Part shown: one piece after another, positions 1,666 to 45,997 of the stretch
How the letters are laid out: each line of letters starts with the position of its first letter
Position numbering within the stretch: the first letter of the stretch is position 1
Virus record (IMG/VR): IMGVR_UViG_3300033149_001838
Location: 1 to 53,092 of that record
Direction: 5' to 3' (one strand)
Source: a virus
Taxonomy: Duplodnaviria; Caudoviricetes
DNA length: 53,092 nt
The notes under the pieces: model-generated
The model's database searches: none
Seen by the model: only the letters and a program-made list of their open reading frames with translations
Told to the model about the DNA's origin: nothing
Program-made: the position numbers and the translations under genes

Positions 1666-1738
1666 CCTCCTGCATAAGATATTTGGGGCTGAAGGTGATG
1701 CAGCACCTTCATTCAGAGATGATCAGTCTCTTACCCCA
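1666..1738 (-). ncRNA. Structured 5' leader, copy A (three-way junction with RBS pseudoknot)
   Basis: Minus strand: TGGGGT-A-AGAGA CTGATCA TCTCT-GAA-TGAAGGTG CTGCAT CACCTTCA-GCCCCA-AATATCTT-ATGCAG-GAGG. Confidence 0.75.
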
Positions 1739-1749
1739 CAATTTAGTAT

Positions 1750-1778
1750 ATTATACCATACTTTGGCTAAAATGTCAA
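1750..1778 (-). promoter_or_regulatory. Consensus sigma70 promoter (repeat copy 1)
   Basis: TTGACA-17 nt-TATAAT with TG extended -10; 1767-1813 is identical to 36916-36962. Confidence 0.9.
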
Positions 1779-1870
1779 GTAAAAAATGATATTAATTGAA
1801 AATAATTTAACTAGACTTCTAGCAAGATGAGACAGACATTTACAAATTAAAAATCTCTAATAATATCAGG

Positions 1871-3136
1871 CTAATACCTCCACGGGCTGGGATCTGTACA
1901 CACAAGAAACTTGTACAGATATGGTGAATTTCCACTGCCATCACTCTTTAAAATTATTCTCACAATATAGTCAACTCCTGGATTATCTATCACAAGTGTA
2001 GCTTGTCGTCTATCTATATTAGTGCCGATTGTATCATAGACTGTCTGATAACTGTTGCCATTATCAAAACTGACCTCCATCCTAACATAACCATATCCAC
2101 CATTTGTACTATCTTCAAGACTAGCAAATCCTACCATATACTGCGGATCATCATCTTTGAGACTATAAGCTCCTGATGCTGGAGTCCCAGAAACTGTAAG
2201 CGTATCAGATGTATTACTTTCTACATTAAATGTATTAGATGCACTATCTATTAGGGTTAAGTTCTTACACTCATCTGTGAACCAACTTTTGCTACTATCT
2301 GTCAGAAAATTCAGTCCAACATTCGTGCTCGTCCCGGTTTCTACAGTAGTTATATTCTCATAAGTCTTAGACACAAAGCCAAACTCCTTATCTGGAGTAT
2401 CATCTTCACCATTATCTAATTTACTTTGATAAACCCTGGCCTGATTAGGTGAGGGATCAGGAGAAGCTCTTTTACTCTCGTCGTCTAGAGCATCCCATAT
2501 AGCAAATTGTGCCCATGAAATCTGTTGAAAGTTCATTTTCATAAGCTCAAGTTCTATGGCTTTATGGTCTGCATAGTTACTAACAAAGGGATTATCACTA
2601 TTTGATCTCAATTCAAATGTTATGTCACCACTGGAATCTTTGCCCCTGATACCATATATATCACTATCTAGTTCACCAATCAGGATTCTCTCCTGACTGT
2701 TAACAACCATCTGTATTTTGGGTGCTGATGCAAACTCATCTGAGATAGTTAATATCCCTGTCATGATTTCATCTGCCAGTAAGAGAGTAGACGGCCTGAA
2801 CTCATAAATTTGAACTGGACTTGAATCTTCTACATATAATCTAACTACTTTGGCTAAGACAGGACTGGGGAAAACTGCCAAAACTCTGTTGTTTGAATCA
2901 GGAGTAGCTTCCCAATAATCAGATCTAGCAGTATTTTCAGTAGTCTTAGCCGTCAGTTTAAGCCCCGTACCTAAACCATGGTCAGAGCTAGATACTCCAG
3001 CATAGTATGACCATTCGGAACCTACTGGACTATTACTCGTAGCCACATAAAACTTAGCCGTAGTAGAAATCCATAAGATCACTTTCTCAAATTGATATGT
3101 GGTAGGATATTCGTACTGCACAAAAGCCCAACTCAT
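1871..3136 (-). CDS. Tail tip/fibre-associated structural protein
   Basis: 421 aa, Ser/Thr/Asp-rich and beta-rich, directly after the gpJ-like gene; AGGAG RBS. Confidence 0.6.
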   Translation of the reverse strand: MSWAFVQYEYPTTYQFEKVILWISTTAKFYVATSNSPVGSEWSYYAGVSSSDHGLGTGLKLTAKTTENTARSDYWEATPDSNNRVLAVFPSPVLAKVVRLYVEDSSPVQIYEFRPSTLLLADEIMTGILTISDEFASAPKIQMVVNSQERILIGELDSDIYGIRGKDSSGDITFELRSNSDNPFVSNYADHKAIELELMKMNFQQISWAQFAIWDALDDESKRASPDPSPNQARVYQSKLDNGEDDTPDKEFGFVSKTYENITTVETGTSTNVGLNFLTDSSKSWFTDECKNLTLIDSASNTFNVESNTSDTLTVSGTPASGAYSLKDDDPQYMVGFASLEDSTNGGYGYVRMEVSFDNGNSYQTVYDTIGTNIDRRQATLVIDNPGVDYIVRIILKSDGSGNSPYLYKFLVCTDPSPWRY

Positions 3137-3151
3137 TTAAATAACTCTCCT

Positions 3152-6100
3152 TTAGCCAAAAATCAGTCCTCCACTATCCTTTATTCCATCATGTAGACTG
3201 GTAGGATCACCCGAAGTTTCTCCATTACTGGTTGCTACCAATCTAAATAGGTTTTTTTGTTCAGCAGATACCGTAACGTCTGTTTCAATATAGGGACTCT
3301 CGTTATTATACCAATCCACATCCTTAACTCGGAATAGTATTTGGGGATGTAGGCCATGATTATCCACATCACTTTCTGATAACATATATGTAAACTCATT
3401 GCTATCTAAGTTTGAGTAACTAGACCAATCACTCATAGAAAACTCTGCAAATGCTGCCCATAACTTTCTATCAAAATAATCAAAAAGCCCTGATGGTACT
3501 TCAAAGACTATTTCCAGAGTGTAGGTTTCTCCTCGTATTAAATTAGTATCTAATAGGATTGCTACTCTGTGAGAATTGGAATGGTCAAATTCAACCTGTC
3601 TTTCACTTGTGTTAATGGTAACACCAGTGATAGGGTATACAGCAGCTTCAAATTCTTCATCTGTCCAGGTGGTCCAGGAGCATAGTTGAACTTCTCCATG
3701 TAAGAGGGATACATTTAGAATCTTGGTATCTCTAAACTTGTTATTAGGATCTATCGAATCAGCAGCAATATATATTCTATTGTATTCTGCATCAGCTTCC
3801 CATGTTATGGAGTGTGTTCTAAACAATGATACAGGGTTATCATCAACCCCTCGTATAATCTCCTTCATATCCTCTTGGATTAGCATATAAGAATATTTAT
3901 AATATTTATGGTCTGATTCTCCACTTGCGTCCCAGTAAAATCTGGCTCCACCGAGTAGAGTATCACCGTTTATATTTTGTAATCTATCTGGGGATAAATT
4001 TTCGGCCCTAAACGGGGTGGTACCAGAAGATTCCCTTTCGCCATTGATAACAGTATGTACTATAAAGTAAACAGTATTATACGGATTACCTTCTCTAGAT
4101 GTACCAGCCAAATCCGATAGCATGTCATTCACTGAATAACTATAATAAGCATCTGTAGTCATCACATCTCTCAATATATTAGCAGTATCAGTAGGATCAG
4201 TATGATAGATTTCTACTCTATAGCCTTTTATAAAAACATCACCTGAAGGCTCAAAATCATCCATTGTTACTGGATTCCACTCTAATGTGACAGTTGTATC
4301 ATCAAAATAGTGTTCTCCCTCTGGATCTGCATTTCTTAATCTCAGTTCACTAGGATTTGGCACATAAATTGGTTGGCTAAGGAGAACTTCAACTGTTACT
4401 GGTTCCCCATACCAACCATCAATACAATAACATGAGAATCTGAACGTGTAATATTCATCCCATTCTAGAGTAGGATCAGTATGTGTTATGGGATTTCCTG
4501 GTGGTGAGATATTCTCTAAACTAACCCACCCAGTTATATCATTAGTAGTAATAGATCTTGACACAGAAATCCAGGATACTGGCAGATAATACTCACCAAC
4601 TGGGACCTCAGCATTTATAACCCAACCTTTACGATTTCCTTGCAATTGAACTATATTAATATTGGTTGGTTTTGGTACGGTAGGTCTATAAGGGGGAGGT
4701 ATAGGATCATCAATAATTATAGTTGATGCCTCAGTGTAAACGTCTGTTTGGTGTTCCACCCCAACTACTGATATTTCATCATCATCCGTACGTTCAACAG
4801 CGGTTAATCTAATAGGTTTAACATAGGTATTTAGTTCTCCTAATGTGAATACAGCATCAGTAGCAGGATCATTGTCAGGCCATGACAATAATGGTACAGT
4901 AGTAACTTCATCATTCTGTGACCATCCTGAAGAATCAATAGTGGCAGTCACAAATTCATTAGAATCAGTCTGGTATTTCATTAAATAGGTGGCGGTTGTA
5001 CTGGGTACTGTATAGGCTGAATCTATTTCTATATTTGGATCGCTATAGCTTAGAACCCTTCCCCCATGTCCCCAGCCTGGTAACTGATGCTGAAAATTAA
5101 TTATATCTCCAGCAGTAGCATGTAGAGCATCCAGCCCACATTTAAATTCCACTACTTGGGTACAATTGGTAGCTCTATTAAGATTGTATATAGCCTCTCT
5201 TCTAGCCCGATGAAAATTAGTTATACCTTTTAAACCAATAGTTATTTCATTAAGTTTGGGTATAGTGTTTGAGCTAGTCTTGGCAATTACATTTCTAAGT
5301 TCATAATCCCGTTCCGCATCTGCATAATTCGCAATAACTTTATACGGGACGTTAGATATGGGGGTAAAAGTCTCTTTGAAGCTACCTTTAATGATATTTC
5401 CCATCGTTAGAGTATGGACAGGAGTTTCATCTTTGTCTATTATAAAATTGAACTTTCCATCAAACCATACAGGCCAACACCTAAAAGCATTGCACATTTC
5501 CATTAGAGCTGTTAGGGCTGATTGCTCTCCTTCTAGTACTCCATTATATGTGTGATAATGTTGTCTAGAAGTCTCAACTGCGATACTTACCTGTGTTATG
5601 TTGCCTGAAAAAAATGGCCCTGTCGGATTACTTGTAACCATTATACGAATAGAATTTATATTAGAATACTGCCAATTATCAACAGAAAAGGTTACAGTTT
5701 CCTCACTATCCTTCATAAGAGCTTCAGTAGAGTATAGATGATAAGTCTGGCCATTTGGGGAACATGCTGCTACCTCCAAAAAGATGTTACTTTGGGTCAT
5801 TTCAGAATAATCTATACTAAATGTATATTTATCTCCCAACACAAACTTGTAGTAAGTTCCTAAACGAAATGTATATGTCCATGTAGTTCCATCAAATATA
5901 ACATGTCTCTCAGAAGTAGATAAGTCAGTGTGATCTCCTGTTTCTATACGACTCACAAATGTATCATCCGTACCATTAATCCACCAATCACAGAGGTCTT
6001 TGGTATATGGCTGCCAAACCCTATGACATTCTTTTATAGCCTCTATAATACCAGCATCATACAGATCTGATTCAGATATATAGTCACCTAGACCATATCT

Positions 6101-8062: not shown

Positions 8063-8064
8063 TG

Positions 8065-8478: not shown

Positions 8479-8480
8479 AA

Positions 8481-9194: not shown

Positions 9195-9866
9195 TTATAG
9201 GCTAGGGTATTTACTGGTAAATGTAATAGTTCCAGACCTCATAAAACCACCATCATTTGTCAAATCTATATCTTGAGGTATATAGGGTCCTTTTTTAAAG
9301 CTATTTAATGGATTAGGAGAACAGTAGACTTCATAAACTGGATATATCTTAGCATAACTATTAGCATCAGATAGAGACAAATCACCATAGGATGTATTAA
9401 ATATAATAAACGAATTAGTAGTTATACTATCATAAGATCCAAATTGGAAGCCATAGTTACTAGCATATACAAACGCATATACTTTTGAATTCACCCAATA
9501 CCGTGTATCTGGTATATAGACTTTCCAATCACTACCGGATAATGTGATAGATGTTGGTGTTATACCCCTAGATAAATCCACCACATAGAAAGAATATAAG
9601 CCATTCTCAGCAATATAGTTAACAAAATGCTCTATCTGGTTATATTCCCTAGCAAATATATTATTGTAATCATATGTTATTGAAAGATATGGATTGGCCT
9701 TTTTTCTGGTAGATATAGTTTGCTGCTCAAATACAGATGTTAGTATATTGGGGACATCTCTTGACATAACCCCATTATTAGGTTCAAAATATGAGTATGA
9801 TATACTACCTATAATACCATCATTAGACCCAGGTGATACAGTCCCTATTGGAAATAAGTTAGCCAT
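9195..9866 (-). CDS. Distal tail protein (gpM/Dit position)
   Basis: 223 aa between tape measure and gpL-like gene; called mainly on synteny. Confidence 0.6.
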   Translation of the reverse strand: MANLFPIGTVSPGSNDGIIGSISYSYFEPNNGVMSRDVPNILTSVFEQQTISTRKKANPYLSITYDYNNIFAREYNQIEHFVNYIAENGLYSFYVVDLSRGITPTSITLSGSDWKVYIPDTRYWVNSKVYAFVYASNYGFQFGSYDSITTNSFIIFNTSYGDLSLSDANSYAKIYPVYEVYCSPNPLNSFKKGPYIPQDIDLTNDGGFMRSGTITFTSKYPSL

Positions 9867-12800: not shown

Positions 12801-15800
12801 GTCTATCATTTTCTTTAAAATTGGTGCATATCTGCTATATATCTTTTCTAAAACTATTACAGTGGTATTACCCAATTTTGTCAACTTAGATTGTAGAGTA
12901 TCCATCTGAACTGCTGCCATATCAGCCGCAGTTCCGAGACTCCCTAAAGAATCGGAGAAACCACGCAACTCACTCGCTCGACCAATAAGTGCAGCTATAG
13001 CAGCAGCTGCCCTACGGTCTAACCCTCTGAAAGCATTAGTTGCATCAAATCCCGCAACTTTAAGTTGTTCTAATATGTCTATAACATTCCTACCACTAGA
13101 CATATCTATATCTTGCAGAGTAATTCCTACTTTATGAAGCTCCTTCTCAAATCGTTTTGATGGTTTAACAAGTTCTCCCAATAGAGACCTTAATCCAGTA
13201 CCAACTTTACTCATCTTGATACCCTGATTAGCCATCATACCGATCATACCAGCAGTATCTGCCAAGGATATATTCAATTGTGGAGCTACACCAGTCAAAT
13301 ACTGTAATGCAGTACCCAAGCCCTTAATTTGGACTTTAGATCTATTAACCGTACTAGCTAACACATCTACAATATGTTCAGTATCATCAGACTCCTCTCT
13401 CCAAGCCTTCATAACGGTGGTTACGAGATCCGCAGAAGTAGTCATGTCTGTCATAGTAGCAGTAGCCAAGGTAGCCACATCTTGGATAGCATTAGTAACT
13501 TCTGCTGCTGAAAGACCTGCCTGACCTAACTTAACCATACCATCAGCTATGGTAGTTATATCAATATTTAACGATTTAGCAACCTTTTCTAATGCCCCAG
13601 ACATGACTAACATCTCACCACTAGTAGCCATAGTAACTGCTTGGAGATTAGCCATTGCCTGTTCTAGCTCTTTAACTTTACGGAATCCTTCAGTTATTCC
13701 ACGATATAAGGCCCAAAATCCCCTCAACTGGATAAACCATCCTGCTCTAGCTCTAAACCAGGATGCGCTTAAAAATCCTGTTTTACCCTCCCGTTCCTTA
13801 AGTTTTGTCCTGAACCTATCAACTTCCTTAGTTGCTTTTTTGAGGTCAAAACTCTTATCTCTAATTAATTTATTGTGGATTTTCTCCAGTCTATTTATAG
13901 CCTCTTTAGTTATTATACCCCTCTTCATTTCAGCTCTTAATCTTCTGCTCTCTACTCTAAGTTTTTTATAGTTCTCTACTCTTTTTTCCTTCTTTTCGGC
14001 AGCAATTGCTTTAGCAGTAGCAACTCTAGCTTTAAGATCTTTTTTAAGAGTTAACTGGTTAAGAGCCAGAAGCTGATTTTGAACCTTTTGTAGCTCGTTT
14101 GCTTTTTGTCTTACATTATTACCAGCTTTTATATCATTTATGAGAGCTGCCTCTTGTATTCGGAGTTCCTTGACCAAATTAGCTTTTCTTCTCTGCGCCT
14201 GTACATAACTTTCCGCCAGTCTCAGTCTTTCCTGCAATACTGCACGATCTTCTGAAGTCTTCTTAGGTATTTCATATTTAAGTCTAGTTCGTCTTACAGC
14301 CTCTTCAGTTAGGGCTTTTTCTAGTCTAATACCCTCCCTAGAATAGGTCATACCAAGTTTCTTATACTCTTGATATACTTTAATTAACTCTACCCTTTTC
14401 TGTTCAGCATCAATATTAGCTCTTATATCTGCATTGAGCTTCCTCTCTTTTAAATGTAACTCGTTTAGTATATCCGCCCTACGACCTAAAGCCTGATCAT
14501 GTTGACCCGCTACTTTTAACTGGGCTTTAAAAAACTCCCTATCTAATTGGGTTCTGGGCTGCCTCCTAAGACCCTGAATCATGATCTTTTCTCTCTCAGC
14601 AGCTAACTCCTTTGCAAACTTAGCACCTTTCTTATTAAGTGCTACTTGAATCTCTTCTAATCTATTAAGATTAGCAATAGTAACCGACCCTTTTTGCATG
14701 ACTTCGACTAGTTTTCTTCTCTCAGTCGTTAACTTTCTCAGTTTCTCAACCCGTCTCTCCCTATCTTCTTGTTTAGCATCCTCTATGAGACCATGCATAA
14801 CGTCAGCTTGTTCTCTAGCTACACCAGTACCTCTCTTCATGAGTTCAGTTTGAACCCTACGAAGTTGAACTGCTTTTGCAGCTACATCATTACCTAATGC
14901 TATATCTGCACGCAGGCGTGCCTGTTCTTTTCTTAGTCTATCAGTCTCAACACTAAGTCTACGTTTGGCCTGACTCAGACTTTTTAGTCTTTCCAATTCT
15001 AATTGGTACTTAGTCTTCTCTGCTCCGGTTTTAGGTCCATATTGAACATCCAAACCTGTTGCCAGTAATTTCTTTCGCTCAGTAGCTAATTTCCTAGCAC
15101 CCTGTATCTCTAAATTTTGAATCTGAAGCCGAGTTCTATCAATCTTATTCGCCTGTGCTACGGTCATATTCTTCTTATCATACTCTTTAAGGAGCATTCT
15201 AAGTTGGGCTTTTAAGTCTTTAACTAGTCTGGTCTTACGCTCATTTATCTCATTATCTAATTTTTCTAACCGTATAACATTAGAAGTTGATACGTTACCT
15301 TTAGCAATTATATCGGCTAATTTGGATCTTTCTTTATTTAATCTTTTTAAATTAGTAGCAGAACGCTCAAGATTTTCTTCTTTAGCCGCCATAACAAGTT
15401 GCTTCATAGCTCCAGCATCTTTTAAAACAACCTCCTGACCTCTCTCTCTAAGCTGGTTTTGGACTTTAAGCAACCTGGCAGAATTTTCCTTTACAGAATT
15501 ACCAGCTTCTATGTCTTTAATAAGAGCCTTTTCAGCTAATCTTAATTCACGTACCTGCTTAGTAAGACGAGCTTCTGCCTCAGCAGCACTTGCAGCTACT
15601 TTAGCCCTTTCCTCATACTGTCGTTGTAATTTAGGACTCTCATCTTCTGATTTTACTCTGGCTCCCTCTCTGGCTCTTAACCTGTCTATCAACTCAAAAC
15701 TCTTCTTTATTTGATCACCAAATTGCCTATAGCGCTCTCTGAATTGTTTAAGCCCAGTGTCAAACATTTTATTGAAAACTTCAAGTCTTCTTTTAACCTC

Positions 15801-17135: not shown

Positions 17136-17549
17136 TTACCTCACGTGTTTTACATTATAATTAGACACACTTATAGTATGTTGTCCACCTTCAAATGAAC
17201 CAATTAAGAGAGGCGCAGAATTATTACAGGTTATTTGACCGTTACCATTTAACTGATTCATATGCAATTCGTTTATAAGAGCCTGTTGAATAGTCAGTGC
17301 TCCTTGACGTGTAACTGAGTTTACTCTGACCTGTATACTAGGCTCCTGTCTGTACCTATCAGACAACGGAGGACCTCCCCCATATGGAATCAAAGTAACG
17401 GTTGTAATATCTTTACCTGCTGGTTCTATACCGATGAACAGATTAGTCCCAAATTCTAGAGTAGTACCTAAAGCTGTACAGATAGCATTAGTGGCAGTAA
17501 GATCCTCTAGATAAGACGCAACGGTATTACAAATTGTAGTAGTCATCAT
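17136..17549 (-). CDS. Tail terminator / tail completion protein
   Basis: GTNLFIG..P...LIPYGGGPP...PSIQVRV pattern; synteny. Confidence 0.75.
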   Translation of the reverse strand: MMTTTICNTVASYLEDLTATNAICTALGTTLEFGTNLFIGIEPAGKDITTVTLIPYGGGPPLSDRYRQEPSIQVRVNSVTRQGALTIQQALINELHMNQLNGNGQITCNNSAPLLIGSFEGGQHTISVSNYNVKHVR

Positions 17550-18322
17550 TTATCACCACTTGTTTCTCTTATTGCTTTATGAGCAGCAGATGATACCAAA
17601 TAGTTAACTCGTTTATTAAATAACATGTCGTCCTCAAATTCTTCTTTTGTTCTAAAGACAGATGGTTTCAGTTTAGCAATGTTGACTGAGAATCTATCTT
17701 TACCACGCTTGGTAATATTCATACTATTAGCTATAATATTACCTAATGCTCCTGTAGATATATGTTTACGTAACCAGGCTATGTATATTCTTTGTTTGGC
17801 TTGAAAAGCACTTTCAAGATATTTAGGGCCAGTTCCTGGAAATCTAGCGTGAGGAGATCCCGATGAACCATAGGGTAACAATTCCTCATGAGTCCATAGA
17901 GCAATGTCTTCTCCCAACTCATTTTCACGCTTATACATCACCATTCCAGAAACTTTTCTGATTCTTTTAGCTCTATTTAACCTACCTCTCAGTTTAGACA
18001 AATCTACATCAACACCACCGTCTCTTCTACCTCTACCCACTACAATGGCATATCCACTTTTACCTGCCCATCCAAAAAATACGTTGGCTAAACCACTCTC
18101 CCTTAATTTACCTCCCCAAGGTAGGGGTTCTCCCTGAGCTGTACTTTGTAGAGGTACCATAGGCTGAGTATTAGTTAAGATATCAGCCATTATCATACCC
18201 ATCATCTTAACAGCTTTATTCGTAATTAATTCCCCAGTAAGTTTTAAATTATTAACAGTTTCACTTACTCCTTCCAATCTTACTCCACTGTTACCTCTGG
18301 ATCTTTGAGGAGACTGCTGCAT
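17546..18322 (-). CDS. Neck/tail completion protein (HK97 gp10-like position)
   Basis: VP...GKLRES and HE...GTGPKYLE motifs; synteny. Confidence 0.7.
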   Translation of the reverse strand: MQQSPQRSRGNSGVRLEGVSETVNNLKLTGELITNKAVKMMGMIMADILTNTQPMVPLQSTAQGEPLPWGGKLRESGLANVFFGWAGKSGYAIVVGRGRRDGGVDVDLSKLRGRLNRAKRIRKVSGMVMYKRENELGEDIALWTHEELLPYGSSGSPHARFPGTGPKYLESAFQAKQRIYIAWLRKHISTGALGNIIANSMNITKRGKDRFSVNIAKLKPSVFRTKEEFEDDMLFNKRVNYLVSSAAHKAIRETSGDK

Positions 18323-31407: not shown

Positions 31408-31754
31408 TATTTAACTCCCCATTTCTTAAATTGATCCATCAATGGTTTATTAGTGTCTATATACAGGTCTTTGTAATCATCCTCATTACCATATGCTGAG
31501 TTAATATCATTTCTATAATTTTTTAAAGCTTCGGAAGATTTAGCAAACGTGCCATACAGGTCATCCCCATGTTGCCATTTAAAGGCCCTTTGCATGTCCT
31601 TGGACGTAGTAGGAACTACATCCCTAGGAAGTCTAGGAATAGCATCTCCAGAGATAACAGCACCGGTCTCCAAATCACGATCTGGATAATAGTCATCCTC
31701 TGGTTTTATATCCTGTCTGTCAATACTACTCTTTGTTCTTGTACTTAGACCCAC
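31407..31754 (-). CDS. Hypothetical protein
   Basis: 115 aa, GGGAG RBS, packed in the operon. Confidence 0.6.
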   Translation of the reverse strand: MGLSTRTKSSIDRQDIKPEDDYYPDRDLETGAVISGDAIPRLPRDVVPTTSKDMQRAFKWQHGDDLYGTFAKSSEALKNYRNDINSAYGNEDDYKDLYIDTNKPLMDQFKKWGVK

Positions 31755-31965
31755 GTTTCTTCATCTCCCTAGCTTTATTTAGCTGTGAGCAAGTAGGACA
31801 TGTCTGTGTTTCAAGCCTATCATACTCCCTCAACTTACGCCACTCTGTAAGACCTTCTCTACCACATTGATCACAGACATAAATTACCCTGGCTGCTAAA
31901 TACCCTTTCTTACCTAGAAATTCTAATGGTATTTCAGCACCACGAATATAAGCTTTAGTAATCAT
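31726..31965 (-). CDS. Small Zn-binding protein, paralogous to the N-terminus of the Hef-like nuclease
   Basis: CDQC...CPTC; MITKAYIRGAEI aligns with MIVKAFKNGKEI of 32317..33864. Confidence 0.65.
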   Translation of the reverse strand: MITKAYIRGAEIPLEFLGKKGYLAARVIYVCDQCGREGLTEWRKLREYDRLETQTCPTCSQLNKAREMKKRGSKYKNKE

Positions 31966-32316: not shown

Positions 32317-33864
32317 TCACCCCTTTAAATTATTATTGGTAACATTCCACACCCAAACTGTGTTACCACAATCAAATATTCTTGTAAAATTGTTGTCATA
32401 CATATTTTGTACTTCAGTTTTGTCGGCATCAAAAAATTCCAATTTCTTCTTTAAAACAGACTTACGAAAATTATATCGGTGTAATCTATTATTATCCACA
32501 ATATACCAATAATTAGGATTACTATTATGAGACTTTCTAAAACCTAACTTGGTATAGAATGCATCTCCCGACCATCTTCTATCAGAATAAGTTATAATGT
32601 TATCTGGCCTCCAATTTCTAACAAAGTACATAAATAACTTAGAAGCAATACCAGGAATAATATAATCTGAGTGAGAGACAAATCTATTTAACTCCCACTC
32701 ATGCTTACTCTTACGGCTCAAATTGGGTTTACCAAAAGTCATTACGGATACTAACTTATCCTCATAGAAGGCTCCTAATTTTATACTTGCAGAATCTTTA
32801 CCTTGTATGTGATGTTGATCTAAGAATTCATTTTTAATTTTAGCAGGAATCTCACAGATCTTACATTTTCTAGCATGGATTCTTTCGGCATCAGATATAC
32901 CTAATTTATAAAATAATCTGGATAAAACTATGGAACTCTTATTATACCATTCATCTTCAAAGATGGTAATTAAGTTATATCCTGCTTTGTTGCACTGTTC
33001 CAATTTATCCAAATGATAATATTTATTCTTCCCTTGAGCTTCACTATGCCAGAATAAGCCACAATACTCTATTGCTGTCTTCTTAGAGGGAATAACTATG
33101 TCAAGTTCTAACGGCCCAATTAATTCTCTGTCACCTGATATAGCATCTGGGAAATGTTCCTGTATTATGCCAAATATTTCTAATTCAGCTCTAGATTTGT
33201 GATGAGAACAATAGGGACATCTGTGTCCCTGCTGAAATGAATTCCATTTAATTTGATACTCATGTCCATTTTCACATTCCACCAATAGTTTAGTTTTGTT
33301 ATTTTTATATTCTGTAGAAATAAGTTTAGTATTACTTTCTTTAAACGCAGCTAATATGGTTTCCAATGTCTGTCTCTTATTAATAGCATTTTCTTTATAA
33401 CTACATAAAAGACACCTACTACCTCTCTGCCAGCTAGACCACGTAATGTAATACTTATGTCCATTAGGACATATGAAGTCTAGTTTCTGCATCCTATGTT
33501 TATACTCTGTAGTTAAAAGAGTATAACCTTCATCTGAAAAAGACTTCTTAATTAAATCAAGATTAAGTCTGGTTTTCTTCTGTGTATCAGATTTATGGTG
33601 CTTATCGGCTAACTCTTTAACTTTCATAGGATTATCAGCACCATATTTTTTAACACAAGTAGCCTTACGCTTCTCTATAACATTATCCCGTTTAATAGTA
33701 CATTTTCTACAATATTGTTTTTCTATCCTGTTCTTACGTTTAAGAGCATACCAGGAAGTTTGCTGTTCACTCCCACAATCATCACACTTATAGATAATCC
33801 TTACATTCCCAACTAAATTATCAATTGCAATCTCTTTCCCGTTCTTAAAAGCTTTTACTATCAT
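32317..33864 (-). CDS. Zn-ribbon repeat, Hef-like (Vsr/PD-(D/E)XK-type) homing endonuclease
   Basis: Two Zn-ribbon repeats; ELDIVIPSKKTAIEYCGLFWHS, IFEDEW, ARKC, ELNRF, YSDRRWS, RIFDCG. Start moved to ATG 33864 behind AGGAGG because the ORF-track extension runs through the leader. Confidence 0.82.
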   Translation of the reverse strand: MIVKAFKNGKEIAIDNLVGNVRIIYKCDDCGSEQQTSWYALKRKNRIEKQYCRKCTIKRDNVIEKRKATCVKKYGADNPMKVKELADKHHKSDTQKKTRLNLDLIKKSFSDEGYTLLTTEYKHRMQKLDFICPNGHKYYITWSSWQRGSRCLLCSYKENAINKRQTLETILAAFKESNTKLISTEYKNNKTKLLVECENGHEYQIKWNSFQQGHRCPYCSHHKSRAELEIFGIIQEHFPDAISGDRELIGPLELDIVIPSKKTAIEYCGLFWHSEAQGKNKYYHLDKLEQCNKAGYNLITIFEDEWYNKSSIVLSRLFYKLGISDAERIHARKCKICEIPAKIKNEFLDQHHIQGKDSASIKLGAFYEDKLVSVMTFGKPNLSRKSKHEWELNRFVSHSDYIIPGIASKLFMYFVRNWRPDNIITYSDRRWSGDAFYTKLGFRKSHNSNPNYWYIVDNNRLHRYNFRKSVLKKKLEFFDADKTEVQNMYDNNFTRIFDCGNTVWVWNVTNNNLKG

Positions 33865-33872
33865 GGTCTTTA

Positions 33873-33943
33873 CCCTCCTATCAGGATTAAGTGGTGGGGG
33901 TGGATAGGCACCCCCTACAGAGTTGGCCGAACTCTTACCACTT
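33873..33943 (-). ncRNA. Structured 5' leader, copy B
   Basis: AAGTGGT-A-AGAGT TCGGCCA ACTCT-GTA-GGGGGTG CCTATC CACCCCC-ACCACTT-AATCCT-GATAGG-AGGG. Confidence 0.8.
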
Positions 33944-33957
33944 TCATTTATGCCTAT

Positions 33958-33986
33958 ATTATACCACAAATAGACCTAAATGTCAA
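33958..33986 (-). promoter_or_regulatory. Consensus sigma70 promoter (repeat copy 2)
   Basis: TTGACA-17-TATAAT; 33977-34026 is identical to 50953-51002. Confidence 0.9.
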
Positions 33987-34038
33987 GTAAAAAATGATGT
34001 TAACTAAAAATATTCCTAAATAATTTAACTAGACTTTT

Positions 34039-34086
34039 GGCAAGGAGAAACAGAAGAAAAAATAACTAACTCTATTCCTCCTTGCC
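34039..34086 (-). terminator. Hairpin after major capsid gene (possible terminator)
   Basis: GGCAAGGAG...CTCCTTGCC inverted repeat; no clean U-tract. Confidence 0.5.
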
Positions 34087-35758: not shown

Positions 35759-35783
35759 CTAGACTTTTGGCAGGGTGGAACAA
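35759..35783. repeat. ~25-bp dispersed junction motif (CTAGACTTTTGGCAGGGTGGAACA)
   Basis: Related copies at 1811-1836, 34029-34054, 36960-36984 and, inverted, 36986-37006 and 46012-46034. Confidence 0.65.
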
Positions 35784-36808
35784 CCCCTGTGAATTTTTTT
35801 GTGACATTTATTGCATAAAGTTATGCCGTTATCAATATCAAGAGATTGTACAGGATCACAAATAACTGGCTCAATATGATGAGCTGTTAAATTATTCTTA
35901 CTACCACAGATCTGGCAGGTATAATTATCTCTAGATTTAACCAGGTCTGCCCATTCTTTCTGGTGAGGGCGAGAATACTCTTTGAAACCTTTGGGGTATT
36001 TAACCTGACCATAAACAGGGCAAGCTTGTTTACAAGAATCTGAACAGTAGAATCTATGTCCACCATGTTTATTTATAGCTATAATTCTACTAACTACATT
36101 TGATTTCTTTGGTGTAAACCACTTATCACAATTAGAGCATTTAACTTCTAGATAACCTTCTTCAGTTTTTCTAGTCTCCTCTACAGGATATAATTTATCA
36201 GCATAGGTGTCATATAATGGGATATTTAGTTTAGACACGCCACCCTTCCATGAGGGATGTTTATCTTCTTTTAATACTGAACAAATTGGGCATCTTTGCC
36301 CCTGCTGGAAATTATTCCACCTGATAAAGTGAACATGCCCATTTGGGCATAATAGTTTCAACTTAGTCTTCTGGCTATTAACATAATCTGATAGCAGTTT
36401 GTATCCTTGTGATTCTACATATTGTTTAACTTTCTCATATGTTATTTTATTACCAGCACAGTAGGGACATCTAGTACCAGCTACAAAACAGTCAAACCTA
36501 ACTGACCAATTATGCCCTTCACTACATTGCAGTTTTAGCTTAACTCTACTCTCATAACTTCCAGATAGCAACTTATACCCATTATACTCAATCACAGATT
36601 TTACATCTTCATAAGTATATTTTATTTTTCCAGCACAATAAGGGCATCTTTTACCTTGCTGAAAATTTCTCCACCTTGCAAAATAAACATGTCCTTTGCT
36701 ACAACATAAATGCAATTTTGTATTTGCATTTATATACTCTTTGGATAATAACTGATACCCTTCTTTTTCGATTATAGACTTGACATATTCATAGGTAAAT
36801 TTTCTCAT
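35759..36808 (-). CDS. Zn-ribbon repeat HNH endonuclease (3 repeats)
   Basis: Three repeats, HPSWKGG motif, CQICGS..AHHIEP..NGITLCNKCH. Confidence 0.9.
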   Translation of the reverse strand: MRKFTYEYVKSIIEKEGYQLLSKEYINANTKLHLCCSKGHVYFARWRNFQQGKRCPYCAGKIKYTYEDVKSVIEYNGYKLLSGSYESRVKLKLQCSEGHNWSVRFDCFVAGTRCPYCAGNKITYEKVKQYVESQGYKLLSDYVNSQKTKLKLLCPNGHVHFIRWNNFQQGQRCPICSVLKEDKHPSWKGGVSKLNIPLYDTYADKLYPVEETRKTEEGYLEVKCSNCDKWFTPKKSNVVSRIIAINKHGGHRFYCSDSCKQACPVYGQVKYPKGFKEYSRPHQKEWADLVKSRDNYTCQICGSKNNLTAHHIEPVICDPVQSLDIDNGITLCNKCHKKIHRGCSTLPKV

Positions 36809-36814
36809 AATATT

Positions 36815-36884
36815 CCTCCTACTAGGATTAAGTGGTGGGGGTGAGTAGGCACCCCCTACGAAGTTAGCTAGACTTCTACCACTT
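36815..36884 (-). ncRNA. Structured 5' leader, copy C
   Basis: AAGTGGT-A-GAAGT CTAGCTA ACTTC-GTA-GGGGGTG CCTACT CACCCCC-ACCACTT-AATCCT-AGTAGG-AGG. Confidence 0.8.
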
Positions 36885-36898
36885 TAGTTTATGTCTAT

Positions 36899-36927
36899 AT
36901 TATAACATATTTTGACTAAAATGTCAA
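36899..36927 (-). promoter_or_regulatory. Consensus sigma70 promoter (repeat copy 3)
   Basis: TTGACA-17-TATAAT with TG extension. Confidence 0.9.
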
Positions 36928-36962
36928 GTAAAAAATGATATTAATTGAAAATAATTTAACTA

Positions 36963-37006
36963 AACTCCTGGCGGGGTGAAACACATGTTCTACCCTGCCA
37001 GAAGTT
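36963..37006 (-). terminator. Long hairpin after tail tube gene (probable terminator)
   Basis: AACTTCTGGCAGGGTAGAAC-ATGT-GTTTCACCCCGCCAGGAGTT followed by T-rich sequence. Confidence 0.6.
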
Positions 37007-37672: not shown

Positions 37673-38566
37673 TTAATGTGAATTAATAATCCACTTATAC
37701 TTATATATTTCAATAGGACATTTGCCTATATATTCAAAAAATGTAGATAAAGAAGAATACGGTATATTAATCGTAAACCCTTTGTATTTTTTTGCTTTTA
37801 TTCCTATAGAGATAAATTTGCTGACTAGAAAATCAACATCACCCTCCGTAAAAGAATTAGTAGCAAATGTTATAGTAGGATTCTCCTTTTTATCTTTTCT
37901 TCTATTGAGACTTCCATCTCCTAGATACCACTGTCGTACCAATACAGGAGACAGTGACAGCGTTTTGGGCACCAATTTCTTTTTATTGACGTAGAATAAG
38001 TCATAAATCTCTTTTAACTCAGGATAAGTCCTAGTAGCAAAATGATAGACCGTAGCATTACCAGTCTTTTGCACATAAATCGGCTTCCCGATAGCTTTGA
38101 TATTATATCTCTTAAAAGTATCTATCAACCAATAAAGATATTCTATATGTTTATTGCCATGCTGATAGAGTGCTGTAAATTTACTGTTACTGACTAACGT
38201 ACCGTCACCTAACAGTTCTCCATATATAAAATCCCTTATATATGAATCTAAATAACAGGTATTTCTAGTTGACAGAAAGACCTGCTCGTCTTTGTCTCTA
38301 ATCGGAATATTGTATTTATATAGCCAAGTACAGATTGTACTTCTTGCTACTGATAGAGATAGTGCTATTTCTCCAGCACTTAATTTCTCAGTTACATACT
38401 TATTTTCCAACCACTCTTTATCAGTATATTTTGGAATTTTCTTGATCTTATGTCTATATAAATAAGATATCAATGCAGCTTTAGATATACCTAATAATTT
38501 TGCTACATCTTCTCTAGATTTATTATTACAGATATACTCTTGATAAATTAGTGTATCTCTATCCAT
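37673..38566 (-). CDS. LAGLIDADG homing endonuclease with N-terminal HTH repeats
   Basis: FIYGELLGDGTL and WYLGDGSL motifs, ATNSFT. Confidence 0.88.
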   Translation of the reverse strand: MDRDTLIYQEYICNNKSREDVAKLLGISKAALISYLYRHKIKKIPKYTDKEWLENKYVTEKLSAGEIALSLSVARSTICTWLYKYNIPIRDKDEQVFLSTRNTCYLDSYIRDFIYGELLGDGTLVSNSKFTALYQHGNKHIEYLYWLIDTFKRYNIKAIGKPIYVQKTGNATVYHFATRTYPELKEIYDLFYVNKKKLVPKTLSLSPVLVRQWYLGDGSLNRRKDKKENPTITFATNSFTEGDVDFLVSKFISIGIKAKKYKGFTINIPYSSLSTFFEYIGKCPIEIYKYKWIINSH

Positions 38567-39743: not shown

Positions 39744-40796
39744 TTATAAATTCCTCAGTTCTGTAAGTTTACAACCTGTTTGATTATGCACTTTTTTATG
39801 GCATTTACTGCAAAGAGTTACACCATTATCAATGTCAGCACTCATAATGGGCTCACAAACCACGGGATCAATATGATGTGCTACTAAGTTATCCTTACTA
39901 CCACATATCTGACAGGTATAGTTGTCTCTAGCTTTGACTATATTAGCCCACTCAGTCTGATGAGGTCTTTTTGTATTAAACCCTTTAGGATATTTACTTC
40001 GATTATAAATACTACAACTACGTTTACATTCAGTAGAACAATAAAACCTACTACCACCACCATTATTAATCGCCATATACCTTGCACTAACAGCCCGTTT
40101 TGTAGGAATAAACCATTTCTGACAATTAGAGCATCTAACTTGTAAATATCCTTCTTTTGTTTCTCTAGTCTCTTCTATAGGTTCTAACAATGAGGCATGA
40201 ACAGAATATACACTTTTTCTAACCTCTATACCTAAAACCTCAGCATTCATTACAACATCCCTACATTTATAACATCTACTACCGCTACTAAAAATATCCC
40301 AGGTAGTCTCTAGAATATGTCCTCTGGTACATCTAACTATCAGCTTATTCTTTGCAGATACATATGTTTCGGAGAGCAATGTATAGTTCTGAGATTCAAT
40401 ATAAGCTCTAACATAGTCTATGTCAAGTTGGGATTTACCTACACAGAAGGGACACCTAAATCCATGCTTAAAGTTATCCCAAGTTACTTTATAAACATGC
40501 CCCTTGTCACATTGGATTTTTAATTTATCATAACGTGCATTATGATACACATCTGACAAACAAGTATACCCAAAAGAACTCACGTATTGTTTTACATCAG
40601 ATATAGTTTTATACCTACCAGCACAATAGGGACAGCGTTTGCCCGTCTTGAAATTTCCAAACTTAACCTCATATTCATGCCCCTGTGAACACCTAACTAA
40701 TAGCTTGGTTCCGTTATTAACATATTCTTTACTTAATAACTTGTATCCTTGAGACTCTATATAGTTTTTTACATAATCATAAGTTAGTTTCTTCAT
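39744..40796 (-). CDS. Zn-ribbon repeat HNH endonuclease (3 repeats); no leader structure
   Basis: Same architecture as the paralogs; CQICGS..AHHIDP..NGVTLCSKCH. Confidence 0.9.
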   Translation of the reverse strand: MKKLTYDYVKNYIESQGYKLLSKEYVNNGTKLLVRCSQGHEYEVKFGNFKTGKRCPYCAGRYKTISDVKQYVSSFGYTCLSDVYHNARYDKLKIQCDKGHVYKVTWDNFKHGFRCPFCVGKSQLDIDYVRAYIESQNYTLLSETYVSAKNKLIVRCTRGHILETTWDIFSSGSRCYKCRDVVMNAEVLGIEVRKSVYSVHASLLEPIEETRETKEGYLQVRCSNCQKWFIPTKRAVSARYMAINNGGGSRFYCSTECKRSCSIYNRSKYPKGFNTKRPHQTEWANIVKARDNYTCQICGSKDNLVAHHIDPVVCEPIMSADIDNGVTLCSKCHKKVHNQTGCKLTELRNL

Positions 40797-40815
40797 AATA
40801 TTTTCAATACTGCCA

Positions 40816-40956: not shown

Positions 40957-40965
40957 ACTAATCTC

Positions 40966-41859: not shown

Positions 41860-41879
41860 ATCTATTATCCTCCGATAAC

Positions 41880-42677: not shown

Positions 42678-42681
42678 TCAC

Positions 42682-43302
42682 TTACCTCGGATTTCGTACT
42701 AGGAAATTAATAGTAGAGAGTTCAATAGTATAAAAAAATGTAAAAAATAATCTTGATATTTCCTCCTTAGTATAAATACGGAAATGATAATCATTGGTAG
42801 CTGTTGTAATACACTTTTGACGATCCTCTTCAGATGATGCTATATAAGTTGTGCCAACAAGTACACCAGTAGATGTTAAAACTCTAGAAATTTCACTAAT
42901 AACTTTGTACCCATCCTCCAGAGTAAAATGCTCTATAACTTCCATCAAAAGAACCACATCAACTGAGTTGTCCTCAAACTCTAGCTGCCTACAATCCATA
43001 CACTTAAAAACAACATTTTCTTTTGGATTATTATCATTACAAAACTTTATAACTTCTTTACTATTATCAATACCATAAACTCTATCTGCTTTATCACTAA
43101 CAATATTCACTCCCCAACCTAGCCCAGAACCTACATCTAAAACTGTTTTACCATCACATAGAGATAATACATTAAGGTACCTACTTAACATTACCCTGAA
43201 ATAACCAGATTTTTGAAAAATAGGATTATTAGGAGCATCTCGTTCACCAACTAAATTACTAGCTACAGCGACTTTATAAGACTCATCAGATAAACCTAAC
43301 AT
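42682..43302 (-). CDS. Class I SAM-dependent methyltransferase
   Basis: RY...VLDVGSGLGWG, GIDNS, EVIEH. Confidence 0.88.
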   Translation of the reverse strand: MLGLSDESYKVAVASNLVGERDAPNNPIFQKSGYFRVMLSRYLNVLSLCDGKTVLDVGSGLGWGVNIVSDKADRVYGIDNSKEVIKFCNDNNPKENVVFKCMDCRQLEFEDNSVDVVLLMEVIEHFTLEDGYKVISEISRVLTSTGVLVGTTYIASSEEDRQKCITTATNDYHFRIYTKEEISRLFFTFFYTIELSTINFLVRNPR

Positions 43303-43303
43303 A

Positions 43304-44836
43304 CTATTCTACCGTTCTATGAGAAGATTGTTCCTTCTCATTATCCATAGTTGTTTTGTACACATTTTTTTCTAGGTTACTATTAGGATTACCCTCACCT
43401 TCATCAAAATACTTTTTGTCTATTTTATTTAAAGGCTCCACAATTCCATCACTGTTGTCAATCTCAGTTTCAATCTCAGATCTAATGTTCTGTGGAGTGG
43501 TCGGAATCATCTTACGCACAATATTTTTCTGTAGAGTCTTATTCAAGAGAGGACTAAAATTTCTTTCCATCACAGTCATATAGTTATTCAATTCATCCTC
43601 TAAAGCTAAAATATCAAAACTAGAAGGATACTTAACTTCTTCTAGGGTCTCCGGGTCTTTATTTAGTTGCAATAATGCTAATCTAGACAAATCATTCTCA
43701 AATTTTTCATAACTTGCACTTTTATTGCTCAATGCCGCATTTACACTGGTAAATGACATCTGAGATTGCCTTCCAGACCTAGAACTGTACAAATCAGACG
43801 TTCCACCAGTTAGGTTAGCGAGCCTGAAACATTCTTTGACTAGATCCTGCACCAACTTCCATACTGTATGTATTATCTCAGAATCCGGGGATATGTACTG
43901 AGGTGGATGAGAACTCTCAGAATCAAATGTCCATACCGAGGAAGTTCCTAATTGTATCAAAGGATTACTGCCACTTTCAGCGGCCTCACTTAAACTGCCA
44001 TTATCGGGAACTACCAACTGAGAAAATGCTTGCCTGGCTATACTCTCAGAGATCAGTGAACAGAAATTCATAATCTCTCTATTAACATAAACAATATCCT
44101 TTATCAGGGACTCCCCTACTTTATTATCACCATAATTACTGCCATGATACATTGTGGCTATGGGAACTATACCAAGAGCATTCTTACCCTTAGCTGGTCT
44201 TCCATCATCAAATTGTACTAACTGCCCATCTTCATCCTGGATTTCCCAACTATCTGTAGTAATAAGCTTGTAATGAGTCTCTACCTCTCTGTCTTTTGTA
44301 GGGTCTAAATCTCTATAATACGTAGACTCAATAATAACCCACCTGAAATTACCTTCAGAATCCAGAGACCAATCTACTAATTGAGTGGGAAAAATAAGAC
44401 TTGCATAAGGATAAAGATTTAATTTTTTAGCAACTGCTTTAGATAGCCTCTTTTTGGGGGATGGCGGAACATCTACCATAGCGTGAATGACACCAAAGAC
44501 AGAGGCAAAATATCCTGCACGCTTTACAAAATCAGAGATATTTGTACCTCTATTATCTGCATTCAGGCGAAATCTTGCCAAATCAGAAGTGGGTGCTCTT
44601 TCTATATTAGACTTAAATATGTAGTTATTTAGAATAGAGGGTAGGAGGTCGCACAAGTTGAGAAAATAGGCACGACTTAATCTATCAGAAAAATCAGTGC
44701 TATCTTCCAATCTATGGGAAAATAAATTATCATCAGTGATAAAATCATCCCCACCTTTGGCAGCATCCTGATACAACTCCCATAAATTAACATTATCATC
44801 ATATAATGGATGTGACCTATCACTCAGTTTTGCCAT
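43304..44836 (-). CDS. Portal protein
   Basis: 510 aa after the terminase; HPLY...W....GG, RL.RA, LGIVP, SG..S motifs of SPP1-like portals. Confidence 0.88.
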   Translation of the reverse strand: MAKLSDRSHPLYDDNVNLWELYQDAAKGGDDFITDDNLFSHRLEDSTDFSDRLSRAYFLNLCDLLPSILNNYIFKSNIERAPTSDLARFRLNADNRGTNISDFVKRAGYFASVFGVIHAMVDVPPSPKKRLSKAVAKKLNLYPYASLIFPTQLVDWSLDSEGNFRWVIIESTYYRDLDPTKDREVETHYKLITTDSWEIQDEDGQLVQFDDGRPAKGKNALGIVPIATMYHGSNYGDNKVGESLIKDIVYVNREIMNFCSLISESIARQAFSQLVVPDNGSLSEAAESGSNPLIQLGTSSVWTFDSESSHPPQYISPDSEIIHTVWKLVQDLVKECFRLANLTGGTSDLYSSRSGRQSQMSFTSVNAALSNKSASYEKFENDLSRLALLQLNKDPETLEEVKYPSSFDILALEDELNNYMTVMERNFSPLLNKTLQKNIVRKMIPTTPQNIRSEIETEIDNSDGIVEPLNKIDKKYFDEGEGNPNSNLEKNVYKTTMDNEKEQSSHRTVE

Positions 44837-45920
44837 TCATTTCAACTCCTATTTTCCTCAAATCACTATACCTACACCCATCCTCAGAATGTACTCTTTT
44901 ATGACAATTACTACATAAAGTTATGCCATTATCAATATCAAGGGATTGTACAGGATCACATATAACAGGCTCAATATGGTGAGCTGTTAAATTATTCTTA
45001 CTACCACAGATCTGGCAGGTATGGTTATCTCTAGCTTTGACTATATTAGCCCACTCAGTCTGATGAGGTCTAGACTGATTGGGGTTCATCCCTTTGGGGT
45101 ACTTGACCTGCCCGTATACAGGACAGGCTTGTTTACATTTATCTGAACAGTAGAATCTATGCCCACCATGTGAATTTATAGCTTTAATTCTGTTACAAAC
45201 CATATCTATAGTAGGCACGAGCCATTTTTGGCAGTTACTGCATCTAACTTCTAGGTAGCCTTCTCTAGTCTTTCTAGTTTCTTCTACAGGGTGTAATCTA
45301 TCAGCATAGGTGTCGTATAGGGGAATATTTTTATTCCTAACTCCTCCCTTCCATGAGGGATGATTAGATCCAGATTTGGCACACACCGGACATCTACGTC
45401 CTTGCTGAAAGACATTAAATTTAACTCCATACTCATGTCCTTTTGGGCACTGGACTTCGAGTTTTGTATGGTTGTTCTTGTACTTCTTACTGATTAGTCG
45501 ATATCCCTGAGATTTTATATACTCCTTTACCTCAGAATAAGTTTTTCTAGCACAACCAGCACAGTGAGAACATCTAACCCCATGTCTGAAATCGCTCCAA
45601 CGAACATTATAAATATGTCCAGAAGGACATAATAATTTCAATTTAGTAGCATTGTTAATATAAGAATTAGATATTAATTGATAGCCTTGAGAATTTATAT
45701 AATCCTTAATAGTATCATAAGGCACTCTTTGTGACTGCCTCAGACAGTATGAACATCTTGTACCATAATTAAAGTTCCCAAATGTTACATACCACTTATG
45801 CCCTTCTGGACACAATAATTTTAGTTTAGTGCCCATATTAATATAAGAATTGGATAATAATTTATAACCCTCTTTCTCAATTACAGATTTAACATATTCA
45901 TAGCTCAGTCTTTTAGACAT
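44820..45920 (-). CDS. Zn-ribbon repeat HNH endonuclease (3 repeats)
   Basis: Same architecture; start placed at ATG 45920 by RBS spacing (the ORF-track GTG at 45929 lies in the RBS). Confidence 0.9.
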   Translation of the reverse strand: MSKRLSYEYVKSVIEKEGYKLLSNSYINMGTKLKLLCPEGHKWYVTFGNFNYGTRCSYCLRQSQRVPYDTIKDYINSQGYQLISNSYINNATKLKLLCPSGHIYNVRWSDFRHGVRCSHCAGCARKTYSEVKEYIKSQGYRLISKKYKNNHTKLEVQCPKGHEYGVKFNVFQQGRRCPVCAKSGSNHPSWKGGVRNKNIPLYDTYADRLHPVEETRKTREGYLEVRCSNCQKWLVPTIDMVCNRIKAINSHGGHRFYCSDKCKQACPVYGQVKYPKGMNPNQSRPHQTEWANIVKARDNHTCQICGSKNNLTAHHIEPVICDPVQSLDIDNGITLCSNCHKRVHSEDGCRYSDLRKIGVEMNGKTE

Positions 45921-45927
45921 AGTATTC

Positions 45928-45997
45928 ACCCCCTACTGGGATTAAGTGGTGGGGGTGAGTAGGCACCCCCTACGAAGATGATCAGTCTTCTACCACT
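45928..45997 (-). ncRNA. Structured 5' leader, copy D (no promoter of its own)
   Basis: AGTGGT-A-GAAGA CTGATCA TCTTC-GTA-GGGGGTG CCTACT CACCCCC-ACCACT-TAATCCC-AGTAGG-GGGTG. Confidence 0.8.

Follow-up and report, generated by a model that had tools for sequence, protein, structure and literature searches.

A structured RNA leader of phage homing endonuclease cassettes with a loop that pairs at the Shine-Dalgarno sequence

The viral record IMGVR_UViG_3300033149_001838 was analysed over its full 53,092 bases (estimated 47% complete), referred to below as the window. Its long open reading frames (ORFs) lie nearly all on the minus strand, and so do four copies (c1 to c4) of an RNA leader of about 80 nucleotides (nt), each preceding a homing endonuclease (HE) gene and each folding as a three-way junction of stems P1, P2 and P3. 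The four elements were found where the original prediction, made from the letters of the window, had placed them, and are oriented on the minus strand. In every copy the loop of P3 is complementary to a sequence (the target) that ends in the Shine-Dalgarno sequence (SD) of the endonuclease gene.

The four leader copies of the window

Leader coordinates begin with the 5'-most nt of P1, end at the position of the start codon and are read on the minus strand. The 5' part of the window copies consists of P1 (5-7 base pairs, bp), one A, P2 (5-6 bp, 17 nt in total), GWA and P3 (7-8 bp with a 6-nt loop); P3 is joined directly to the 3' strand of P1 (junction strand J3/1 = 0 nt; J1/2 = 1 nt), and the conserved unpaired nt of the junction number about 5 (the A of J1/2 and the GWA of J2/3). 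The 3' part consists of a linker, a CCU-like stretch, the loop-complementary hexamer, the remainder of a GGAGG-type SD, 7-10 nt and the start codon. The CCU-like stretch can pair with the remaining SD purines to form a fourth stem (P4); the linker between P1 and P4 measures 1-4 nt in this layout of the window copies and 2-6 nt in the copies parsed below. A covariance model built from four copies (R1) recovers all four window copies at 50-92 bits. The copies and their pairing elements are as follows:

1656..1738, minus strand: leader c1; P1 1738-1733/1689-1684, P2 1731-1715, P3 1711-1690, P4 about 1679-1666; R1 92 bits
1698..1703, minus strand: c1 P3 loop, CUGCAU
1670..1675, minus strand: c1 target, AUGCAG, then GAGG; the SD AGGAGG spans both
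33862..33943, minus strand: leader c2; P1 33943-33937/33895-33889, P2 33935-33919, P3 33915-33896, P4 33887-33872; R1 50 bits
33903..33908, minus strand: c2 P3 loop, CCUAUC
33877..33882, minus strand: c2 target, GAUAGG, then AGGG
36806..36884, minus strand: leader c3; P1 36884-36878/36836-36830, P2 36876-36860, P3 36856-36837, P4 36827-36814; R1 51.5 bits
36844..36849, minus strand: c3 P3 loop, CCUACU
36818..36823, minus strand: c3 target, AGUAGG, then AGGA
45918..45997, minus strand: leader c4; P1 45997-45992/45950-45945, P2 45990-45974, P3 45970-45951, P4 45940-45929 (CCC/GGG); R1 59.7 bits
45958..45963, minus strand: c4 P3 loop, CCUACU
45932..45937, minus strand: c4 target, AGUAGG, then GGG

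The three-way junction is the minimum free energy structure of all four window copies, which bears out the common fold originally proposed, and of 15 of the 16 parsed copies. The loop/target pairs of the original prediction (CTGCAT/ATGCAG, CCTATC/GATAGG and, twice, CCTACT/AGTAGG) and its stem variants were exact. Single-sequence folding of the window copies gave z-scores of -1.5 to -2.3, with 4-14 of 200 shuffles folding equally well; because these scores are modest, thermodynamics alone is unconvincing and the case therefore rests on comparison. The ribosome-binding site (RBS) concerned is a strong one, with a GGAGG-like core 7-11 nt upstream of the start codon (8 nt in 13 of 19 rows).

Known RNA classes were compared as follows. 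The whole window gave 0 matches to Rfam 15 at the gathering threshold and five weak matches at E<=10, none of them at a leader, and the c3 region alone gave a best score of 10.9 bits on the opposite strand; the leader was likewise no named family in the original prediction. Ribozyme, riboswitch, group I intron, HEARO, packaging RNA (pRNA) and exonuclease-resistant RNA (xrRNA) identities were rejected for want of an Rfam match. SD-masking pseudoknot riboswitches (SAM-II, preQ1-II) were set aside on the same ground, with about 5 conserved unpaired junction nt in the leader. For an xrRNA, J3/1 of 0 nt and J1/2 of 1 nt leave no strand for the ring pseudoknot, and for a group I intron with an HE ORF, no intron model matched and the cassettes lie between complete genes. 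A tRNA-like reading was rejected because ARAGORN found no tRNA or tmRNA.

Relatives and covariation

In a cultured-phage collection, nothing matched at the DNA level, either with the c2 leader (distant mode) or with 12 kb of window sequence (near mode) as query, and the window terminase is at most 38% identical to the terminases of known phages. Exact patterns from c2-c4 gave only chance matches in viral contigs (3 loci; 5 loci), a 7-bp-P3 pattern found nothing there, and a related-locus search with the terminase gave 29 pattern matches, none of which was confirmed. With a degenerate pattern that kept the junction and the closing pairs of P3, one true viral contig was obtained (G001; loci L012 and L088), and the metagenome collection gave 61 loci, comprising 6 true members (L019, L031, L039, L040, L060, L062) and 55 chance matches. 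Further patterns added the viral contigs G002 (L090) and G003 (L092); a looser-pattern viral match (L013) was rejected as chance. Beyond the window, the leader was found in three other viral contigs and in six metagenome contigs, and R1 detected more copies in the same contigs. Scanning 185,579 species genomes twice yielded 0 and 10 loci, none of them a member (best 14.9 bits, E 0.2), and no prophage or host copy was found with patterns that see close relatives only.

Sixteen copies were parsed, with 15 distinct cores: copies G1b and G2b are the same from P1 onward, and G2a is divergent (18.8 bits). In BLAST comparisons, structural genes of the window are 64-76% identical to those of G001 and L062, identity between G001 and G002 is 97-99% over the parts they share, and that between G003 and L062 is about 92%. 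Judged by these similarities, the contigs with the leader come from related phages, and the family is confined to one phage clade as far as found. The sequencing runs listed as carrying this DNA comprised one DNA run, labelled hydrothermal vent metagenome, and no RNA run.

Stem statistics were computed on an alignment fitted with R1 (18 rows, 16 distinct). Statistics for the helix between loop and target were computed with a second model, in which only P2 and that helix are paired, on an alignment fitted to the helix. Since model-fitted alignments lean towards the modelled structure, an alignment-free parse of the 16 copies was made besides; a MAFFT alignment of all copies was set aside, as it mis-registers the 7-bp and 8-bp forms of P3. 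In stems P1-P4, 96.0% of cells pair versus 84.1% in shuffles (0 of 500 as high), pairs changed on both sides number 16 of 23, and pairing falls to 46-58% in controls with the partner slid by 1-3 columns. In the loop-target helix, all cells pair (100%), five of the six pairs change on both sides, and the slid controls give 30-45%.

The alignment-free parse gave the same picture, as the whole loop (6/6 or 7/7 nt) pairs beside the SD in 16 of 16 copies, with 12 distinct loops and a single G.U in the loop helix. Loops of 6-7 nt start with C(C)U, and targets of 6-7 nt end in the first one to three SD purines, with predicted duplex energies of -5.2 to -9.0 kcal/mol. Cognate loops and targets form 6.5 contiguous pairs on average versus 4.1 for non-cognate ones, and only 4.8% of 230 non-cognate combinations reach 6 pairs. 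Copies G3b and M62c are 91.6% identical over the region, yet loop and target differ compensatorily. Complementarity of the loop to the SD region and covariation, both first proposed from the four window copies, hold in this larger set.

P4 follows the register of the loop. It is formed by CCU(U) 5' of the target and the remaining SD purines 3' of it, as CCUU-N6-GAGG if the loop covers one G of GGAGG and as CCU-N6/7-AGG if the loop covers two, with a double change to CCC-N6-GGG in c4. A simple parse found P4 in 15 of 16 copies, G2a having it in a different register, and 91.9% of its cells are paired. Between the loop helix and P4, all SD nt of the HE genes have predicted, covarying partners. 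The G.U pairs seen in P1, P2, P4 and in the loop helix are compatible with the sense strand alone. On this comparative evidence, the element is a real, structured and covarying 5' leader whose P3 loop pairs at the SD far beyond chance.

The homing endonuclease cassettes

The genes behind the window leaders are as follows:

240..1658, minus strand: HE gene after c1; CapR/treble-clef repeats and C-terminal HNH, 472 codons
32317..33864, minus strand: HE gene after c2; PHROG 559/3339 homing endonuclease, CapR domain, weak REase_MTES_1575
35759..36808, minus strand: HE gene after c3; CapR/treble-clef and C-terminal HNH, 349 aa
44820..45920, minus strand: HE gene after c4; CapR/treble-clef and C-terminal HNH, 366 aa; between terminase large subunit and portal

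These genes sit among structural genes (between terminase and portal, behind the major head protein, or behind a major-tail-like protein). No HNH domain was found in the c2 gene by domain searches, and the single PDB sequence match of the c2 protein was weak (3r3p, 'mobile intron protein', E 0.022). Two nuclease types, HNH and Hef-like, had been predicted: the difference in type and the HNH assignment stand, and the Hef-like label gives way to PHROG 559/3339 with the weak REase_MTES_1575 match. In the window and its relatives, all parsed leaders precede HE-like genes (Pfam and PHROG matches) of at least four nuclease types (HNH, PD-(D/E)XK-like, LAGLIDADG and endonuclease VII (EndoVII)-like). 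They include HNH enzymes with CapR/treble-clef repeats, a PHROG 3339/559 type with MTES_1575, a LAGLIDADG_2 enzyme with an N-terminal helix-turn-helix (HTH; E 2e-28) and an EndoVII-like protein (PHROG 1035, E 6e-17).

At the start position of the c1 gene (1656-1658, minus strand), ATA is found versus ATG in the other copies, with the 472-codon frame intact; this gene may be decaying or using a non-canonical start. An in-frame ATG is also present inside P3 of c1, at 1712. Just downstream of the c2 endonuclease, a short ORF (31726-31965, minus strand) is weakly similar to that endonuclease (47.8 bits) and may be the remnant of another cassette. Two HE-like genes of the window carry no leader: a LAGLIDADG-type gene (37673-38566, minus strand), which begins where the upstream ORF ends, and an HNH-type gene (39744-40796, minus strand). 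Both are without any SD, and the homologue of the LAGLIDADG-type gene at the homologous site of L062/G003 has a leader with GGAGG. Low translation appears to be reached in either of two ways, by the absence of an RBS or by the masking of a strong one.

Three of the leaders follow promoters with a 12/12 match to the consensus, as had been predicted:

1750..1778, minus strand: promoter of c1, TTGACA-17-TATAAT, 12/12, TG
33958..33986, minus strand: promoter of c2, TTGACA-17-TATAAT, 12/12, TG
36899..36927, minus strand: promoter of c3, TTGACA-17-TATAAT, 12/12, TG

Leaders c1-c3 begin 8-12 nt downstream of these promoters, all of which have an extended -10 TG, and have no upstream ORF; c4 has no promoter of its own, and its P1 begins 35 nt beyond the terminase large subunit stop codon. 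The promoters belong to an 88-nt module, in which TTGACA-17-TGnTATAAT is perfect and an AT-rich part upstream of it is conserved; it is present in four copies (1747-1834, 33955-34042, 36896-36983 and 50931-51018) that are 66-89% identical. At 50931-51018, the module stands before a non-HE gene (49945-50901), which it drives through a short leader that is unstructured and lacks the leader RNA motif. Because the same module drives a non-HE gene, the promoters of c1-c3 are probably the phage's own. Among the parsed copies, 5 of 16 follow a promoter of their own and 11 lie at cistron borders; in 9 of these 11 promoter-less copies, P1 follows the stop codon of a long upstream ORF at a distance of -2 to 35 nt. 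No sigma-70-type promoter was found between P1 and the SD in c1-c3, phage-specific late promoters being beyond this recognition.

The boundary of the cassette was read from an empty site in G002 (...TAACAATCT followed directly by ATCATGATATG...), whose flanks are 97-99% identical to G001. The insert of G001 at this point runs from the first G of P1 to 21 nt before the HE stop codon. Since the insert starts at the first nt of P1 and is absent from G002, the leader forms the 5' end of the cassette and is, by this comparison, the 5' module of a mobile free-standing HE cassette. The empty site is intergenic and the cassettes lie between complete genes, so that an HE-class nuclease domain, an intergenic position and a presence/absence difference between G001 and G002 are seen together, as expected from the sequence of a free-standing HE cassette. 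G002 also has a second cassette (G2a, a leader with an EndoVII-like gene) in place of 47 nt present in G001. At 1392-2312, G002 further carries about 920 nt that G001 lacks, and these showed no similarity to the HE set used for comparison.

Recombination moves leaders and ORFs separately, as L031 combines the M60a leader with an M19-type N-terminus. At G002 15196-15425, compared with G001 17206-18059, the leader is kept and a 590-nt deletion showing short microhomology leaves 47 codons of the HE; by this alignment, it is a decaying cassette. A PD-(D/E)XK-type HE shared by G003 (1881-3677) and L062 (7211-8107) has about 300 N-terminal CapR/treble-clef residues in one contig and not in the other (a 908-nt difference), behind the same promoter and with leader loop and target differing compensatorily.

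A second leader class, not detected by R1, was found at G001 9351-9457 and G002 5929-6035. Its P2 and P3 covary within a three-way junction, UUCCU occurs in the P3 loop, and a 7-bp hairpin holds the SD; the leader lies after a tandem-TTGACA promoter, downstream of the capsid gene (the site of c2 in the window), and precedes two different HE ORFs in G001 and G002.

Proposed effect on translation and alternatives

The best explanation in our judgement, probable with considerable room for doubt, is that the leader is a portable SD-masking element that restrains translation of the HE; repression is what we infer from the pairing. The three-way junction would present the 6-7-nt P3 loop, the loop would pair with the stretch ending in the first SD purines of AGGAGG, and the upstream CCU(U) would pair with the leftover (G)AGG in P4, giving every SD nt a partner. 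Binding of the 30S subunit would be hindered and endonuclease output would stay low at every site the cassette enters, whether that site follows a strong promoter or a structural gene with high translation, possibly to the benefit of the cassette or the phage. In its simplest spatial form, the leader would be a cis loop-to-tail pseudoknot. Because the same leader travels with different nuclease types, it is most naturally read as acting on translation initiation.

Several points weigh against SD masking. Low expression would need no more than a simple, weak RBS, and perfect promoters precede three window copies, an unexpected setting for a gene that should stay silent, although that promoter module serves a non-HE gene as well. 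The loop itself covers only 1-3 SD nt, and P4 alone is weak (-1.0 to -5.8 kcal/mol). A pseudoknot beside an SD can also activate translation, as in repZ of IncI-alpha plasmids. The elaborate junction and a self-complementary apex of P2 are left unexplained. On geometric grounds, complete masking within one molecule may not be the true state: with J3/1 of 0 nt and a linker of 2-6 nt, a coaxial stack of P3, loop-loop helix and P4 (about 18 bp) could not easily close in cis with P1 formed. Three arrangements are possible, namely a cis pseudoknot without P4, if P3 folds back along P1 (a course with precedent in xrRNAs); a cis kissing complex with P1 open, giving a bistable leader; or pairing of loops between molecules, at which the self-complementarity of the P2 apex hints.

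It is possible, though not likely, that the leader is a conditional switch, in which the SD alternates between masked and open states; the change would be triggered by temperature, by a factor acting in trans (a small ligand, or a protein of phage or host), or by ribosomes that terminate upstream and melt P1. A strong, optimally spaced SD is kept and hidden, not lost, and P1 and the loop helix with P4 have similar predicted strength and may exclude each other sterically. The upstream stop codons of the 9 promoter-less copies lie within or near the reach of a terminating ribosome; the promoter-proximal copies, however, have no such ORF. Against a switch, no covarying alternative pairing and no riboswitch family match were found, and the few conserved unpaired nt leave little room for a ligand pocket. 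The original prediction had proposed a translational switch with a pseudoknot OFF state, of which the SD-pairing leader stands; nothing was found that would open it into an ON state.

An intermolecular assembly would place the same pairings between leaders: the P3 loop would pair with the P4 loop of another leader and P2 apices with each other, so that dimers or oligomers lock the SD only if the mRNA is abundant. We regard this as unlikely. With P1 and P4 both formed, the 2-6-nt linker appears to give too little reach for kissing in cis, and the P2 hairpins (1715-1731, 33919-33935, 36860-36876 and 45974-45990, minus strand) are perfect palindromes broken by one extra pyrimidine. In the window and its relatives, the apical tetramer is self-complementary in 11 of 11 distinct P2 hairpins, with eight different tetramers (GAUC, GGCC, AGCU, UGCA, AAUU, GCGC, GUAC, UAUA); the composition-keeping shuffle is a lenient null for 4-mers (41%), and a position-specific expectation of 1/16 is fairer. 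Palindromes of at least 6 nt occur in 8 of 11 hairpins versus 7.9% of shuffled loops, with a constant centre and, in 10 of 11, one preceding extra nt (usually a pyrimidine). Homodimer duplexes of P2 are predicted to be 6-18.5 kcal/mol better than two hairpins. The apex may serve RNA dimerisation or may be a mutational by-product of inverted repeats, in which templated mutation could produce palindromic apices. Against assembly, a cis loop-to-tail pseudoknot without P4 is feasible if the junction is bent, one of the two class-2 leaders has no palindromic P2 loop, and c3 and c4 share kissing sequences and differ in the P2 apex. Complementary loops unable to pair intramolecularly and a self-complementary apex are the hallmarks of self-assembly in phi29-type pRNA and retroviral dimerisation initiation site hairpins. 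The leader shares with these RNAs the three-way junction, two complementary loops and a self-complementary hairpin apex; unlike them, it belongs to an mRNA and sits at an SD instead of serving a packaging motor or linking a genome dimer, and it has no sequence or model match to them. If true, such assembly would make the leader a self-assembling RNA governor, a concentration-sensing translation brake carried by a mobile gene cassette.

A role as mRNA stabiliser or processing signal, where the junction and pseudoknot block a 5'-3' exonuclease or mark an endonuclease site and so give a stable cassette message within polycistronic transcripts, seems improbable. The location at cistron borders in 11 of 16 copies would fit it, as would the architecture: in flavivirus xrRNAs, too, the apical loop of a three-way junction pairs with the strand just 3' of the junction, so that such a cis pseudoknot is sterically possible. 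The leader differs from xrRNAs in having the SD as pairing partner, a constant choice that stabilisation would leave unexplained, in lacking a junction strand (J3/1 = 0 nt) for their 5'-end pseudoknot, and in matching no xrRNA model. We give still less credit to translational activation, by which the loop-target helix would prevent the CCU/AGG hairpin and keep the SD core open. The CCU of a cis pseudoknot would be stretched as a linker and unable to pair, and the repZ pseudoknot mentioned above is a precedent; against this, the loop always pairs with one to three SD purines, P4 alone is weak, and there is no leader peptide ORF.

That the leader is an RNA partner or autoregulatory operator of the nuclease, as the original prediction had considered, or a nuclease site in the DNA, is very hard to credit: most associated nucleases have Zn-ribbon/CapR repeats, but the nucleases are diverse (at least four unrelated types, including the LAGLIDADG enzyme with HTH and the EndoVII-like enzyme) and swapped, with the M60a leader of L031 before an M19-type ORF, identical or near-identical leaders before different HE ORFs and one class-2 leader before two, and the G.U pairs and SD involvement indicate a sense-strand RNA. 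Structured RNAs beside HNH nuclease genes are known in HEARO and the omega-RNA of IscB. The leader is much smaller, accompanies several nuclease types and has no Rfam match.

SD masking by the leader has relatives in function. Leaders of IS10 and IS200 shield the gene of a mobile element from read-through expression by fold-back inhibition or SD sequestration; these belong to another element type and lack a three-way junction and a loop-loop or pseudoknot part. According to the review PMC2988022, RBS-sequestering structures limit translation of T4 I-TevI/II/III, segB and Aeh1 mobE, and likewise are cis RNA structures hiding the SD of a phage selfish endonuclease; as described there, they are simple local hairpins, each gene-specific, that are bypassed by an internal late promoter (PMC2988022). 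In contrast, the leader is a conserved family (three-way junction, loop-SD helix and CCU/AGG stem), is common to unrelated nucleases, moves with the cassette and has no internal sigma-70-type promoter in c1-c3. RBS masking of a selfish nuclease gene is already a known kind of control; a conserved, mobile, multi-helix RNA family of this kind is not known, and a limited full-text literature search (main texts only) gave no description of such a motif.

With its clean covariation (three stems and a 6-7-bp tertiary helix), this small RNA may serve as a model for translation control by pseudoknots or kissing loops, and its many natural orthogonal loop pairs are a possible source of orthogonal parts. 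The covariance model provides a search handle for such cassettes in metagenomes. If SD masking is true, selfish nuclease cassettes would carry their own generic expression control, which would help to explain how many copies are tolerated inside the essential late operons of one phage.

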